Part shown: positions 3,685 through 19,329 of the stretch, one piece after another
Layout: each line of letters begins with the position of its first letter
Numbering within the stretch: position 1 is the first letter of the stretch
Origin: a virus
Lineage: Duplodnaviria > Caudoviricetes
Length of the DNA: 64,000 nt
Direction: 5' to 3' (one strand)
IMG/VR virus record: IMGVR_UViG_3300014205_000015
Location: 13,731 to 77,730 of that record
Program-made: the position numbers and the translations under genes
The notes under the pieces: model-generated
The model's input: the letters and a program-made list of their open reading frames with translations, nothing else
Told to the model about the DNA's origin: nothing
The model's database searches: none

Positions 3685-3722
3685 TATTCTTTCCTCCGGG
3701 TAGGGTTTCAACGGGTTTAGCT

Positions 3723-3779
3723 GCCTCGTCAGGTCATCCCCACTACGGGATAACTACGCCCACAAGTGAGCGTTTCGGC
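3723..3779 (-). ncRNA. type II hammerhead ribozyme
   Basis: GCC-GAAA-stem III (6 bp)-GUA-stem I (8 bp)-CUGACGA-GGC; complete catalytic core; intergenic. Confidence 0.9.
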
Positions 3780-3780
3780 T

Positions 3781-9890: not shown

Positions 9891-9964
9891 GGAGTCGGTA
9901 GCTCAGGGGTAGAGCAGCGGGGCATGTAATCCGCGGTTGATGGTTCGAATCCGTCCCGATTCCA
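9891..9964 (+). tRNA. atypical tRNA (Thr-UGU-like, 8-nt anticodon loop)
   Basis: GGAGTCGG/CCGATTCC acceptor, GCTC/GAGC D arm, GCGGG/TCCGC anticodon stem with loop GCATGTAA, GATGG-TTCGAAT-CCGTC T arm. Confidence 0.75.
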
Positions 9965-13789: not shown

Positions 13790-14260
13790 ATGAGCGAACG
13801 ATGGGACAATCATTTCTTGCGATTGTGTCAGGACCATGCAAGGATGTCGAAAGACCCAAGCACACGAGTTGGCGCTGTAATAGTCGGACCTGACGGGGAA
13901 ATTAGGTCGGCTGGATTCAACGGTTTCCCACGCGGAATTCTCGATAGCGACGAACGCCTGAACGACCGAGACACAAAGCTAAAGCTGATGGTCCACGGGG
14001 AAATGAACGCGATTTTAGCAGCTGCGAGAGTTGGGACGCCGGTGAAGGGATGCACGCTGTACCTCGCGGCTACTGATTCATCGGGGATTGTGTGGGGCGG
14101 TCCTCCGTGTGTGCGCTGTACAGTTGAAGTAATTCAGGCAGGCATAACAGAAGTGGTGTCTTACCCCAAACGCAGTGTTCCATCAAAATGGCATGAGGAT
14201 TTGGCAATGGCTGAAACTCTTTTACGTGAAGCGGGGATTGGTTACAGATGCGTCGATTAG
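13790..14260 (+). CDS. dCMP deaminase (cytidine/deoxycytidylate deaminase family)
   Basis: SKDPSTRVGAVIV, HGEMNAI, PCVRC zinc-binding motifs. Confidence 0.92.
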   Translation: MSERWDNHFLRLCQDHARMSKDPSTRVGAVIVGPDGEIRSAGFNGFPRGILDSDERLNDRDTKLKLMVHGEMNAILAAARVGTPVKGCTLYLAATDSSGIVWGGPPCVRCTVEVIQAGITEVVSYPKRSVPSKWHEDLAMAETLLREAGIGYRCVD

Positions 14261-14547
14261 AAATCAAACCCGGAGAAACCTACGGCGACCTCAAAATCAT
14301 CAAGGAAGTCGAATCCAGGGGCAAACGTCACTTTTTATGCCAGTGTGCCTGTGGCGGAAGTCCGTCAGTTCACCGACTGGGGCACTTACGCTCAGGTCAC
14401 GCCACGACATGCGGTCGCTGTGGTTTCGAATTTGAGGGACAGCGGAAGACAATCGCAGATTGGGCGGAATTGTATGGGCTGAAGGAGTCTACGTTGCGAG
14501 CTCGGCTAAAGGTGATGGGCGTTAAAGAGGCACTGGAGCGGACATGA
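14248..14547 (+). CDS. HNH-family derivative lacking the nuclease core
   Basis: N-terminal GETYGDL...CQCACG module joined directly to the C-terminal HTH (TIADWAELYGLKESTLRARL). Confidence 0.6.
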   Translation: MRRLEIKPGETYGDLKIIKEVESRGKRHFLCQCACGGSPSVHRLGHLRSGHATTCGRCGFEFEGQRKTIADWAELYGLKESTLRARLKVMGVKEALERT

Positions 14548-14927
14548 GCCAAGCCGACGAATACATCCAGGAAGCACTGGAGCTAGCAGAGGACAATGCT
14601 GGTGACCGCTGCCCGCTGTCGTCCGATGCGTGTGGTGCATACTTCGAGCAGATACGGGACTTGTTACGGAAGGTGAGCGAAAACGCCGGACAGAACGTGA
14701 GCCAAGCCGATTCCGAGGAAATGCACACTGCCCTAGAGCAGATAGCAGCGCTAGCCCATCATGGTGGACTGATAGGATTCTCGGACGTAGACAAGTGCCT
14801 GAGAGAAGTACGGCGGATTTCGTTGAAGTGGTGGGACAAGAGCGAGTGTGCTAGGCTGCAAGAGGAAATAGACGCAGTTCCACCAGGGTTTTCAGATTCT
14901 TCGCACTTTCCTATTGACCCACAGTAG
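14544..14927 (+). CDS. hypothetical protein
   Basis: 127-aa ORF, ATGA overlap. Confidence 0.6.
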   Translation: MSQADEYIQEALELAEDNAGDRCPLSSDACGAYFEQIRDLLRKVSENAGQNVSQADSEEMHTALEQIAALAHHGGLIGFSDVDKCLREVRRISLKWWDKSECARLQEEIDAVPPGFSDSSHFPIDPQ

Positions 14928-14942
14928 CAAGCTGTATAAAGT
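14914..14942 (+). promoter_or_regulatory. sigma70-like promoter for the RAMP/array operon (TTGACC-17 nt-TAAAGT)
   Basis: Shares TTGACCCA and AGCAAG with the 12452 promoter. Confidence 0.55.
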
Positions 14943-14949
14943 ATTAAGT

Positions 14950-15018
14950 GTTGGCTCCCGGAAAAGACTCAACAATACAAACCGTCGATTTACTGTGCGT
15001 TTCTTTCCGGGAGCCAAC
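14950..15018 (+). repeat. 15-bp perfect inverted repeat in the leader
   Basis: GTTGGCTCCCGGAAA at 14950-14964 and TTTCCGGGAGCCAAC at 15004-15018. Confidence 0.85.
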
Positions 15019-15053
15019 GCAGTGATTCGGCGGTTTTTTATTGGAGTGATGCG

Positions 15054-15539
15054 ATGGCTATTGTTGAAAAAGCAAGAGTGAAATGGGCAGATAAAGAGGC
15101 GGCAATTCGGTCGCTCGAGTCTGGCGGTAAAATCGACCCACTGGATTTGATTGAAGCCGCTCGCGATCCTGAACATCCGTGTCACTCTGATTTCACTTGG
15201 GACATCGACCAAGCGGCTGCCGAACGGTGGCGGGATCAAGCCCGTGAGTTGATTCGCTCGTGCAAGTTTGAAGTGCGAGTGGAAGACGTAGGCAGCAGGG
15301 TTTGCATGTACGTTCCATCTGGCGACGAAGATGCAACATTCGTGTCACTACCAAAGATTCGCAGCAAGGCTCAGGCGTCTGCGGTTGTTCTAGCGGAGGT
15401 TGCCATGTTGCTTGGGAATGCTTCTCGGGCATACGGGATAGCGTTGTCGAAAACGAACATTGTTGGCGCTGACGTTGTTGTTCAGTTGAAAGCGATTCGC
15501 GAACTGGTGGCTACGCTGAAGGCTGAGCTAGAGGATTGA
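15054..15539 (+). CDS. partner protein of the RAMP/array locus
   Basis: LIEAARDPEHPCHSDFTWDIDQAAAERWRDQARELIR motif; lies immediately upstream of array 1. Confidence 0.8.
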   Translation: MAIVEKARVKWADKEAAIRSLESGGKIDPLDLIEAARDPEHPCHSDFTWDIDQAAAERWRDQARELIRSCKFEVRVEDVGSRVCMYVPSGDEDATFVSLPKIRSKAQASAVVLAEVAMLLGNASRAYGIALSKTNIVGADVVVQLKAIRELVATLKAELED

Positions 15540-15545
15540 TTCATT

Positions 15546-15863
15546 GGTCAAGGAATGTCGGGGCGTGGTTCGGCGTGGTGTTTCAGGTTTCGGTATGCTT
15601 GGGCGGTCATGGAGAGGTCGGGCTAGGTGCGCTCTTGCGAGTCGAGTCGAGGCGGTCGAGTCCGTGCGGGGTGCGGAGTGCTCTGGTTGGGTCGGTCCAG
15701 GTTGGGTTCGGCGGTCGCGGTTAGGAATGGCGTGCTGCGGCGAGTCGGGGCTCGTTCCGGTTGGGCGGTCAAAGTGGGTCAAGGCTTGGTGCGAAGTGGT
15801 GCGTCCTGGAAAGGCGGTCGAGGCGGGGATTGGAGTGGCCCGTATTGGTCCGACAAGGCGGTC
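15546..15863 (+). repeat. pentamer-coded array 1: six units of GGTC+(NN-GGY-like)x8-11; putative guide RNAs
   Basis: Units start at 15546, 15605, 15654, 15713, 15767 and 15816; lengths 59, 49, 59, 54, 49, 44 (all 5n+4). Confidence 0.9.
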
Positions 15864-15951
15864 AGAGAGAGAAGGTTTTTGGTTTGGAGAGTGTTTCTCC
15901 AGACTCCTACACAACAGGGGTGTTTCACCCCGCAATTAAGGAGAAGCCATT

Positions 15952-16716
15952 ATGGCAAAAGCATCTGGTGTTTTGGAAGCGATTGAAGTTGAACCACTAC
16001 GAGTTGGCAGTATGCAAGTCTGGCTGCGTGGTATCACGCCGCTGATCTGTAATCGATTGGCGGCAAAGGCACGGCGCGAGCTGTTGCTTCCGAAGGGACG
16101 AAAGTCGACGGCGGAAAAGCAGCAATCGCTGAAGCATGATCCGGTAGCTGAGTTCCGAGACAGCATGAATGTGCGATCTGGTGTTGGACCTACACGAGTA
16201 GTGTTTCCTGCGCCCGCAGTGAAGGGTTCTATGGCTACTGCCGCGCTGGAGACGAAAGGCACGAACAAAACGCAGATTGGTCGTTTGGTTCGTGTGGCTG
16301 GTTATTCACTGGATGTCTACGGAATACCAGAATTATTCATGGCTATTGTTCGTTCGGCGGACATGGCTCGGACGCCCGACGTTCGGACGCGAGCGATCTT
16401 GCGCGAGTGGTGCATGCCTGTTACCGTTCAGTACGTCAAGCCGCAGATGTCTGAGCAGGCTATTATGCAATTGCTTGCCAACGGCGGAATTATCATCGGA
16501 GTAGGTGATTTTCGTCAAGAAAAAGGCAAAGGCGATTTTGGCTGCTACGAGGTCGTCACCGAAGCCGATTGTAAGGACATTATCAAAAATGGCGGGTTGA
16601 AGCAGCAAGACGCTGCGATCAAGACTCCCGTCTGCTTCGACAGTGACACTGAAGAACTTTTAGGCTGGTTCCAACAGGAAGTTAAAGTTAGAGGAAAGGG
16701 AGAACTGGTTGCCTAA
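15952..16716 (+). CDS. RAMP/Cas7-like RNA-binding protein (Vipr-like effector)
   Basis: N-terminal VWLRGITPLICN strand and C-terminal Gly-rich loop GIIIGVGDFRQEKGKGDFGCYEV; flanked by pentamer arrays. Confidence 0.75.
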   Translation: MAKASGVLEAIEVEPLRVGSMQVWLRGITPLICNRLAAKARRELLLPKGRKSTAEKQQSLKHDPVAEFRDSMNVRSGVGPTRVVFPAPAVKGSMATAALETKGTNKTQIGRLVRVAGYSLDVYGIPELFMAIVRSADMARTPDVRTRAILREWCMPVTVQYVKPQMSEQAIMQLLANGGIIIGVGDFRQEKGKGDFGCYEVVTEADCKDIIKNGGLKQQDAAIKTPVCFDSDTEELLGWFQQEVKVRGKGELVA

Positions 16717-16725
16717 CTGTCAATT

Positions 16726-17376
16726 GGTCGCGGAGAGGTATGGCAACATAAGTCACGGTCCGGCGAGTCATGTCCGGGCGGTCATGGAATGGTTGGGCAC
16801 GGCACCATATGGTATGTCGCGGCTTGGCGTGGCGGTCCCGGTTGGGTCCGGTAAAGCTGGTCGGGGCGGGGTGTTGCGAGCCCGGGTTTGGCGGTCGGGG
16901 TACGGTTCGGCACGGCGGGTCGGAGCATGGAATGTTGCGGCGGTCGCGTCGAGGTGCGGTGCGTTTGGGCGAGTCCAGGCGCGTCGGGGTATGGTTGGGC
17001 GGTCGAGGTGAGGAAAGGCTGCGCTAGTTCAGGCGAGTCATGGCACTGGCGGTCGCGGTATGTCCTGACTAGTCATGTGAGGAAAGGCGAGGCGGGGCGG
17101 TCGAGTCGGGTCTTGGAGAGGTTCGGTCCGTTGCGGTCTGTCCGGGCGGTTTGTCAAAGCTAGGCTGCGCGTGGCGGTCATGGTGACGAGAGGCTGGGTA
17201 TGGTACGTCGCGGCGGGTCTGGGGCCGGTGAGGCGGTCAAGATTCGTCAGGTCGCGGACAGGCGGGGCGGGGTACGCTTAGGCGGGCCTAGTCCTGGCGG
17301 TCGCGTCGGGGTCTGGAGTGGCACGGTCGGGCAAGGTGAGTCGAGCTCTGGCGTGGTGAGTATCGGCAAGCCGGTC
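16726..17376 (+). repeat. pentamer-coded array 2: twelve units of GGTC+(NN-GGY-like)n; putative guide RNAs
   Basis: Units start at 16726, 16780, 16834, 16893, 16942, 17001, 17051, 17099, 17148, 17176, 17235 and 17299; three units (17001, 17051, 17148) carry 1-nt irregularities. Confidence 0.9.
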
Positions 17377-17415
17377 GTGATTGACTGTTAAGAGGTCATG
17401 CAGCACAATTGCTGC

Positions 17416-19329
17416 ATGACCTCTCCTTTTTTTGATTTAGTCCCAAAAGACCCAATTGAGAATCTCCGTTGGCGCATTCGTTGCCGCGAGCGTGCATTGG
17501 CTGATAAGCGGTTTCGAGACTCGCTATATCAAGCGTGCATGAGTGATCTTTGTTTCTGGATGGCATTTGCCTGTTGGGGATACGACCCGCGAGCCCGCTT
17601 CAAGATCGTTCCATTTGTACCCTATCCACATCAACAAGCTGTGTTCGTGGCGATGGATGAAGCCATAAGCACTGCCGAACGTGAAGAACGATCGGTCGAC
17701 GTGATCCTGGACAAAAGTCGGGCTCAAGGTGGATCTTTTGGATATCTTTGGGTCGACCTTCGGCGCTGGCTGCGCGATCCAATGTTTTCAGCAGGTTTTG
17801 TTACGAAAAATGAAGATTCGATTGATTCAAAGAGCGACTCATCGACGGTGCTGTGGAAAGTGGCATGGGCGATTGAGCGATTGCCTTTCTGGATGAAGCC
17901 CAATTACGAACGGCATCTTGGTCAGCACACTTTCATTAACAACGACAACGGTTCGTTATTGCGAGGATACTCTGCAGGGCAAGACGTGGCAGCCGGTGGC
18001 CGTACGACTGTGTTCACAGTGGACGAAGCTGGCGCGAGAGACTTCGTTTCAGGTGGCAAAGACGAAGCGGTTCAGGAGTCTATTCAAGACGTGTCCAACT
18101 GCATTCGCATGGTCTCTGCTCGTTACGTGGATGCAGGTGTCTTTCACGAAGCCTGCGAAAACCCAGACACGAAAAAGAACGGTATTCATCTTATACTGGA
18201 CTGGAAAGACCACCCCGCTCAAAGCAAGCACTCTTACATTGTGCGAGAGGGAATCGCGGTTGCCATAAAGCCGGAAGATCAAGCGGCGGTCACGGAATAC
18301 CACCGAAAACACCCTGACCTGCGATCCCGACTGGAAAGAAAAGGATTTAAATTTGAAGTGGTTGTTCGCAGTCCGTGGTACGACTCTCGATGTTTGCGCC
18401 CGACAGCCACCCCGCGACTGATAGCTTCGCAGCTCGACCGCAACCCTCGCGGAGCAGTAGGTAAAGTTTTCGCATCAGACCTCTTGGACCGCATGAAGCG
18501 AGAGCACTGCAAGGGTCCAGTTTGGGTGGGCAATCCAGTATTTGACTCAGAAACCTGCAAACTAACGGGATTGATTCCCAGGGATGACGGCTTGCTGAAA
18601 CTGTGGTTCAAGCCGGGCATCGACAACTCACCGCCGCTGGGACCGTTCACCGCGGGATGCGACATCGCTTCGGGTGGAGTTGGGGCGTATTCCTCAAACT
18701 CGGTCATAACGGCGCTGGACGACAGAACCGGGGAGCAAGTCTTGGAGTACACGGTCAAGGGACTCGAGCCACGACCGTTTGCACGCCGGGTGGTTGGGCT
18801 GTGCATGTGGCTTAGAAACGCACTGCTTGGCTGGGAGGATTCCGGGGTGTCTGGTGGTTTTGCTAAGGAAATCATGGAAGTTCTTTATTATGGTTCCGTG
18901 TTCTATCGGGACGTAAACCAGCTCGGTTCCCAGAAGAAAAGCCGCAAGCCTGGCTGGCCGTGCCGTGACGCAGACAAAGCGGACGATTTTGAGCAAATGG
19001 CGCTGGCGATGGAGACTGGGAAGTTCGTTCCGCGTTCCGAGGAAATGATTGTCGAGTGTTCTGAATATGAGTGGGACGGCACCAAAATCATTCACGCACC
19101 GTCGAAAAACAAGGGGGCGGCTGACAAGAATCACGCCGACCGCGCTATAGCAATGGCAGGCTGTTGGAAGGTCTTTAGCACCGATAATGCAACCCGTAAG
19201 ATTGACACAGACGTGGAAAACGGTCAGAATCCAGAGTACGGCTCGTTTTTATGGCGAGAGCAGCAAGAGCGCCGGAACGTGAAAACGGGTAGCCCGAAGT
19301 TCGGGATTAGGGACATTATTGGACGCTAA
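17416..19329 (+). CDS. terL: terminase large subunit
   Basis: DKSRAQGGS Walker A-like, VDEAG Walker B, GCDIASG and HADRAIA RNase H-fold acidic motifs; lies upstream of portal and capsid. Confidence 0.9.
   Translation: MTSPFFDLVPKDPIENLRWRIRCRERALADKRFRDSLYQACMSDLCFWMAFACWGYDPRARFKIVPFVPYPHQQAVFVAMDEAISTAEREERSVDVILDKSRAQGGSFGYLWVDLRRWLRDPMFSAGFVTKNEDSIDSKSDSSTVLWKVAWAIERLPFWMKPNYERHLGQHTFINNDNGSLLRGYSAGQDVAAGGRTTVFTVDEAGARDFVSGGKDEAVQESIQDVSNCIRMVSARYVDAGVFHEACENPDTKKNGIHLILDWKDHPAQSKHSYIVREGIAVAIKPEDQAAVTEYHRKHPDLRSRLERKGFKFEVVVRSPWYDSRCLRPTATPRLIASQLDRNPRGAVGKVFASDLLDRMKREHCKGPVWVGNPVFDSETCKLTGLIPRDDGLLKLWFKPGIDNSPPLGPFTAGCDIASGGVGAYSSNSVITALDDRTGEQVLEYTVKGLEPRPFARRVVGLCMWLRNALLGWEDSGVSGGFAKEIMEVLYYGSVFYRDVNQLGSQKKSRKPGWPCRDADKADDFEQMALAMETGKFVPRSEEMIVECSEYEWDGTKIIHAPSKNKGAADKNHADRAIAMAGCWKVFSTDNATRKIDTDVENGQNPEYGSFLWREQQERRNVKTGSPKFGIRDIIGR

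Follow-up and report, generated by a model that had tools for sequence, protein, structure and literature searches.

The window analyzed here is a 64,000-nt stretch of a 77.7-kb phage genome, and it carries a compact cassette between an HNH gene and the terminase gene terL. The elements follow in the order HNH gene, candidate vap gene, first repeat array, vipr, second repeat array, and terL. The vipr gene (15952-16716, plus strand) encodes a Cas7-like RAMP protein of 254 aa, an assignment that draws on a PDB match, the predicted fold, and the adjacent arrays. The upstream array (15547-15860, plus strand) contains six guide units, and the downstream array (16727-17373, plus strand) contains about 11 to 12 contiguous guide units that meet at GGCG/GTC junctions. 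VIPR has been described as a phage-borne system that comprises a minimal RAMP protein (Vipr, homologous to Cas5-7), an accessory vap gene, and vrRNAs of 9 to 16 GGY/NN pentamers, with the GGY triplets conserved and the NN bases hypervariable (10.64898/2026.04.26.720920).

The only sequence match of the 254-aa protein in the PDB is the SUSP1 Vipr protein (36pp_D; E = 0.0027 with the single sequence), and a profile built from 17 sequences recovered the same entry at E = 9.6e-07. About 54 residues align by sequence between the two proteins. An alignment-based AlphaFold2 model reached a pLDDT of 80.2, and its top Foldseek matches were all subunits of Csm3, type VII Cas7, Cmr4, or gRAMP, 44 of them at E ≤ 0.001. 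The protein is accordingly modeled with the Cas7/Csm3 RAMP fold. The Vipr family comprises 1,482 proteins at E ≤ 0.001, and G-rich arrays with a period of five adjoin the vipr homolog in all 14 viral loci that we fetched. Cultured phages are only distantly related on both counts: Vipr matches occur in five Gordonia phage records at 24 to 25% identity, and the closest TerL matches share 22 to 26% identity.

The 161-aa open reading frame at 15054-15539 (plus strand; phrog_15946) has no Pfam family. Of 14 related VIPR loci, 11 have a homolog of this frame next to their vipr gene, either upstream or downstream, and this co-occurrence suggests that it is the vap gene of the system. Terminase relatives at 47 to 89% identity (L001-L014 and L015-L020, among them one complete genome of 72.9 kb) carry the HNH gene directly upstream of terL, and they lack vipr, the vap candidate, and any array with a period of five. 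The 161-aa frame and vipr were both missing from the set of 14 terL relatives and from two related genomes examined whole. Because the HNH gene of these relatives directly precedes terL, the VIPR cassette of about 2.4 kb (within positions 14248-17398 of the window) is best read as an insertion.

The downstream array occupies the roughly 650 nt between the vipr reading frame and terL, whose start codon lies at 17398 or 17416. Base autocorrelation across 16720-17380 is 0.436 at a lag of 5, compared with 0.23 to 0.30 at lags 1 to 4 and 6 to 9, and further peaks appear at lags 10, 15, 20, 25, and 30. The period-5 structure is thus far above chance. The plus strand of the array is rich in G (45%), with 21% C, 21% T, and 13% A. 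We resolved the arrays into units with a dynamic-programming parse, according to which abutting guides take the form gtcNN (ggyNN)n ggcG and neighboring guides join through a 4-nt unit, which offsets the register by one base. The upstream array has the same gtcNN...ggcG form. The legend of fig. S18 of 10.64898/2026.04.26.720920 names "staggered arrays" that overlap by 1 nt, and this junction form agrees with them. No Rfam family matched within the arrays.

In total, 184 guides were parsed, 16 from the window and 168 from relatives (L021-L034). Their inner triplets carry G at the first position in 91%, G or T at the second in 89%, and C or T at the third in 86%, and T occupies the second triplet position in 23% of the units (GTC or GTT). 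All 16 dinucleotides occur at the NN positions across this set, and their use is uneven: GA (13.8%), AA, GC, and AT lead, while CC is the rarest at 3.5%. Such a bias would follow if most guides took their dinucleotides from codon positions one and two of the sense strand. The guides differ between close relatives.

Immediately downstream of the second array, a perfect 15-bp hairpin is followed by a T-run (17391-17433, plus strand), which probably serves as the terminator of the array transcript. Both candidate ATG codons of terL lie inside this hairpin, an arrangement that could couple termination of the array to translation of terL. Two other accounts of the repeats were considered and set aside. 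A protein-coding reading was rejected, since the four open reading frames inside the array have no Pfam or PHROG family and a 5-nt period is unlike coding sequence; the ideas of a packaging signal and of an RNA wound about a ring protein like TRAP were dropped after the Vipr match and the target calibration described below.

The guide unit of interest occupies 17177-17235 on the plus strand and reads gtcAT ggtGA cgaGA ggcTG ggtAT ggtAC gtcGC ggcGG gtcTG gggCC ggtGA ggcG. It has the general form gtcNN(ggyNN)x10 ggcG, with 12 triplets and 11 NN dinucleotides. The preliminary description had placed this unit one base too early, at 17176-17234, with identical content, and our rereading of the sequence returned the same list of dinucleotides (AT GA GA TG AT AC GC GG TG CC GA). 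Its decode was likewise formally correct, namely, (I/M)(D/E)(D/E)(C/W)(I/M)TAG(C/W)P(D/E), except that TGN permits Cys or a stop codon where W and C had been given in the peptide IEEWITAGCPD. The first bases of the dinucleotides are purines in 8 of 11 cases, as expected for a reading of sense-strand codons. The third triplet, cga, departs from GGY. Internal degeneracy of this kind is common among the 184 parsed guides and is also mentioned for vrRNAs in the published description (10.64898/2026.04.26.720920). No counterpart of the unit was found among the 168 guides parsed from the relatives' arrays, where the best score was 13/22.

According to the published accounts, pairing with DNA is confined to the NN bases, and between successive dinucleotides the guide passes over one target base, usually at the wobble position of a codon (10.64898/2026.04.26.720920). 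One Vipr protomer binds each repeat, with the GGY bases flipped out and the NN bases paired to the target strand (10.64898/2026.04.26.720927), and binding represses transcription (10.64898/2026.04.26.720920). Guides matched to codon periodicity have also been described, and the excision recombinase of a satellite is among the targets (10.64898/2026.10.15.759431).

We calibrated this targeting rule on the sister guides of the downstream array by scanning for dinucleotides separated by one skipped base, with shuffled guides as nulls. The guide at 17236 matches the terL genes of relatives at up to 23 of 24 positions, compared with 19/24 (79%) on the terL gene of its own phage (17713-17747). Similarly, the guide at 17300 scores 25/28 on relatives' terL and 22/28 (79%) on its own (17791-17831). 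The self-scores of these last two guides fall just below the 80% line used for natural targets in 10.64898/2026.04.26.720920. The relatives that they match include those without the cassette and some that bear a VIPR system. The first guide of the array (16727-16780) scores 18 to 19 of 20 on the vipr genes of four relatives (L021:846, L022:7047, L023:10406, and L024:789), at a conserved motif, ADMN(K/R)TPD(I/V)R, versus 15/20 on its own vipr gene at about position 16357. By these matches, it is predicted to act against the vipr genes of other phages while leaving that of its own phage unaffected, a class of guide that has been reported for phages of Enterobacteriaceae (10.64898/2026.10.15.759431).

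All three sister-guide matches are in the sense orientation and in frame, and the skipped base falls at the wobble position. The matches are imperfect, at 80 to 96% of the NN positions. Off-consensus triplets are frequent in guides that have targets; the guide at 17236, for example, contains gat, gct, and gcc. The six guides of the upstream array had no target at 80% or more in their own genome or in the related loci, and altogether 13 of the 16 guides parsed from the window had no target in the data searched. Both the published one-base-skip rule and the three sister guides bear out the earlier proposal of a guide at 17177-17235 with dinucleotides that stand for the first two bases of target codons.

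These observations identify the locus as a VIPR system: a Vipr protein encoded beside repeats, tandem GGY/NN vrRNAs, and the skip rule are all present, and the stretch at 17177-17235 is a true vrRNA guide, a class of element that has been published before. Further likenesses to published VIPR systems are the sequence match to SUSP1 Vipr, GGYNN arrays on both sides of vipr, and 8 to 14 NN dinucleotides per guide, together with the wobble skip, guides directed at related phages and rival vipr genes, carriage by a phage, and self-copies that score below 80%. The locus differs from the systems of SUSP1 and P. fulva (type II), whose vrRNAs are described as about 100 nt long, each ending in a conserved 3' tail or pseudoknot. 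In the present array, by contrast, one unit directly follows another at the GGCG/GTC junctions, and a single hairpin comes after the last unit. The protein is also longer, at 254 aa compared with 202 aa.

A broader comparison is with the Cas7 filaments of class 1 CRISPR systems (Csm3, Cmr4, type VII Cas7, and gRAMP), which the modeled protein resembles in its predicted fold and in its top 50 Foldseek matches. Both arrangements place one protomer on each RNA segment of fixed length and periodically disrupt the pairing between guide and target. They differ in that the period here is 5 nt with two pairing bases and an asymmetric 3:1 skip, compared with 6 nt and five pairing bases in the Cas7 filaments. 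We found no CRISPR repeats, no cas1 or cas2, and no nuclease partner at the locus.

We then asked where the guide at 17177-17235 might bind. The exact gapped pattern, with all 22 specified bases, returned no match in viral_contigs, genome_contigs, or metagenome_contigs. In its own 77.7-kb genome, no site had three or fewer mismatches; the best score was 16/22 (73%), which is the level of shuffled guides (mean, 15.7; maximum, 18), in frames that contain stop codons. The guide therefore does not target its own genome at 80% NN or more. The related loci (454 kb) held no site of at least 18/22, and 14 whole records of relatives held none with three or fewer mismatches.

Relaxed searches of viral_contigs used four block-wildcard patterns that jointly cover every site mismatched in one dinucleotide only. 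These patterns (A, B, C, and a fourth) returned 6, 22, 9, and 0 loci, with a best score of 20/22 and no site of 21/22, and a reversed control of pattern A returned 2 loci compared with 6. An 18-base pattern, composed of dinucleotide 2 and dinucleotides 4 to 11, returned 15 loci in genome_contigs (596 billion bases), where by our own arithmetic about 17 are expected from size, and 17 loci in metagenome_contigs. Among these 32 hits, 2 scored at least 21/22 compared with about 1.6 expected, and 11 scored at least 20/22 compared with about 8 expected, again by our own arithmetic. The numbers of near-matches are about what chance predicts. The preliminary description had named hits no better than background as grounds for doubting its family assignment, and the hits indeed do not exceed background, with no exact match in the three collections and 15 loci against about 17.

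The published 80% NN threshold was applied to host-restricted pangenomes (10.64898/2026.04.26.720920), and for a guide with 22 positions it is passed by chance in collections of 10^10 to 10^12 bases. In-frame matches are favored in any case by the codon-like pattern with its purine-rich first positions, a feature that the guides of the clade share in general. At the same time, even the genes hit by the sister guides match incompletely (80 to 96%), so one of the near-matches of 18 to 21 of 22, though indistinguishable here from noise, could be the true target or lie close to it. Convergence of a second guide offers an independent criterion: the rival genome that served as a positive control (G001) is hit by two guides, and no other guide of the window rose above chance on the five viral records that hold the methyltransferase, L099, and L078 sites discussed below.

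The near-matches comprise 69 sites with scores of 16 to 21 of 22, at which we scanned 98 in-register open frames against Pfam (sense and antisense, at least 40 aa, with duplicates removed). The families that they fall in are unrelated to one another: N6_N4 DNA methyltransferases, hypothetical proteins with a "...WITAGCP..." motif, and one small phage protein. PF01555 is the only Pfam family above its curated cutoff at sense-strand sites. An additional viral protein of 846 aa (L078) scored 20/22, and the remaining sites lie in frames with stop codons or antisense to unrelated genes. The antisense decode, S-G-H/Q-P-A-V-I/M-H/Q-S-S-I/M, was rejected because it falls on unrelated genes (metallophosphatase, DUF11, secretin, and RNA-virus RdRPs) with no convergence; the RNA-virus polymerase sites could not be targeted by a DNA-binding system.

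We consider it probable, at roughly 0.8, that the stretch at 17177-17235 represents a single vrRNA guide from the VIPR system of a phage and is an orphan in the collections searched, most likely aimed in the sense orientation at a coding gene of an unsampled competing mobile element, and not demonstrably at an AlpA or excisionase gene. We infer that the guide is expressed, loaded, and functional. More specific proposals for its target, and the proposal that it has none, were weighed against this reading.

The most interesting candidate, although a weak one, is the beta-class DNA methyltransferase (N6_N4, PF01555) of a competing phage or element, which the guide would bind just upstream of the DPFxGSGTT motif, leaving the rival DNA unmethylated. 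The site has the form ...FPPEL-x-E-x-C-I-T-A-G-C-P-E-GG... and is seen as FPPEL-V-E-R-C-I-T-A-G-C-P-E-GG-x-VLDPFGGSGTT. The last eight dinucleotides of the guide match this single PF01555 motif perfectly and in frame at seven loci, with scores of 19/22 for L038 and L049 and 18/22 for L039 and L040 (identical to each other at the site and in the open reading frame), L056, L060, and L072. Wobble bases differ between the sites of L038 and L039, which places the conservation of the motif at the protein level. The phage has no PF01555 gene of its own, so such a guide would carry no risk of self-targeting. However, no site in these genes exceeds 19/22, and the first three dinucleotides (I/M, D/E, and D/E) face V-E-R, A-E-R, A-E-T, or I-R-P in the methyltransferases. 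The hit counts are at chance level overall, and a few hits are to be expected in a family as large as PF01555. In addition, no related phage locus carries the motif, and the three viral methyltransferase records lack a match to a second guide. On balance, we regard a methyltransferase target as unlikely.

If it were true, the methyltransferase reading would amount to RNA-guided epigenetic disarmament, which goes unmentioned in passages of three VIPR preprints (10.64898/2026.04.26.720920, 10.64898/2026.04.26.720927, and 10.64898/2026.10.15.759431); the main text of the first contains neither methyltransferase nor methylase. Through the C-I-T-A-G-C-P-E segment of a phage or plasmid methyltransferase, the guide would switch off the self-protective methylation of a rival and expose it to the restriction enzymes of the host, a scenario that we hold to be a little less likely still. 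As a separate observation, the methyltransferase at L038:1-1686 carries an HNH/LAGLIDADG-like insert within the PF01555 enzyme (a phrog_5046 match over residues 114-225 and a weak PF14528 match), possibly an intein or the insertion of a homing endonuclease.

The highest scores belong to genes that encode [IL]-[ED]-x-W-I-T-A-G-C-P-[ED], either in a cellular "...RMP...IExWITAGCP..." family or in small viral open reading frames, and a target of this kind could be a host gene. Two homologous open frames of 378 to 388 aa score 21/22 (L061, IEKWITAGCPD; L069, IEAWITAGCPE). Scores of 20/22 were obtained for L047 and L055, which come from Pirellula MAGs and have a weak Cytochrome_CBB3 match just upstream, for L068, for a site in a 238-kb viral contig (L037, identical to L059; IESWITAGCPD), and for a 115-aa acidic protein of a 42-kb viral contig (L099, IEEWMVAGCPD). 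Leu, Ser, and Arg, the amino acids with more than one pair of leading codon bases, are absent from the decode, and any protein that carries the decoded motif therefore scores 22/22 automatically.

Against these genes stand the counts given above, which are near chance at both score levels, and the fact that the proteins do not form one family. A protein search with a 45-aa region of L061 returned two proteins, as did a search with the L099 protein, and the exact motif occurs in none of them: the close relatives of L099 (AIEEWTVAGFPD and AVEEWAVANYPD) do not keep it, nor does the one relative listed for L061 (IESWIQAGCPD). The L099 and L078 records had no second-guide match above chance. For a cellular target, a search of 401 genomes from the phylum of the Pirellula MAG returned no Vipr homolog, and the targets published for phage-borne VIPR systems are mobile elements (10.64898/2026.04.26.720920). 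We consider this group of genes an improbable target.

The guide might instead be decayed or spare, its target lost after a rival escaped or died out, and its cga triplet might weaken the loading of Vipr. The lack of a target in its own genome and in related loci or records, the lack of a perfect site in the collections, the lack of a counterpart in the relatives' arrays, and the one off-consensus triplet are all compatible with decay. The same lack of a target applies to most guides of the window, a sign of sparse sampling more than of decay, and triplets that depart from the consensus occur often in guides with targets, including the one at 17236. The purine bias of the dinucleotides also remains as it would be for sense-strand codons. 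Decay is, in our estimation, hardly more than an outside chance.

AlpA proteins (PF05930) are regulators of integrative elements and satellites, and the preliminary description had tentatively placed the target in the part of such an element's AlpA-like or excisionase HTH gene that encodes the C terminus. None of the 98 in-register open frames belongs to Phage_AlpA, an excisionase, or an HTH family, while the positive control of the same scan, E. coli AlpA, was recovered as PF05930 at 6.9e-24. The proposed resemblance is real over a short stretch: the C terminus of E. coli AlpA, ...EIDEWLSQRCKLI, fits the first four guide codons as I-D-E-W (8/8). Beyond these codons it shares only one Cys with the decode, and the best site in E. 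coli K-12 alpA, IDEWLSQRCKL, which is the sole member of the family that we scored, reaches 13/22. Patterns that require dinucleotides 1 to 9 returned no viral hits, and those that require 1 to 6 together with 10 and 11 returned nine, none in a small HTH protein. Neither AlpA nor excisionase is mentioned in the main text of 10.64898/2026.04.26.720920 and 10.64898/2026.10.15.759431. An AlpA or excisionase target is very improbable.

The preferred reading, an orphan guide aimed at a competing mobile element, implies a mechanism like that of published VIPR systems. Vipr protomers would polymerize along the guide RNA, one per GGYNN unit, hiding the GGY bases and presenting the 11 NN dinucleotides. 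These dinucleotides would base-pair with a DNA strand, passing over every third base of it, and binding would silence transcription of the bound gene. The cga triplet of the guide could weaken the binding of Vipr at that unit; perturbation of GGY motifs has been reported to abolish silencing (10.64898/2026.04.26.720920).

Since VIPR was described only in 2026, each natural locus with a well-resolved anatomy is of help. The present one offers a compact cassette between an HNH gene and terL in a 77.7-kb phage, with tail-less, abutting guides that flank vipr and with guides whose targets are terL and vipr in the nearest relatives of the phage. It also illustrates a general difficulty in assigning targets: a degenerate decode of 11 codons is short enough to have in-frame look-alikes in several unrelated families in terabase collections. 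With look-alikes so abundant, a family name suggested by a motif or an 80% NN score on huge databases identifies a target only when it is joined by a host-restricted search or by several converging guides.

Two RNA features lie elsewhere in the window. A type II hammerhead ribozyme (3715-3780, minus strand; RF02276, 50.6 bits) occupies the gap between two minus-strand genes. Arrays of vrRNAs interspersed with ribozymes are mentioned in 10.64898/2026.04.26.720920, and the hammerhead here is not part of such an array, with no period-5 signal around it. A tRNA gene is located at 9892-9963 on the plus strand (RF00005, 45.1 bits).
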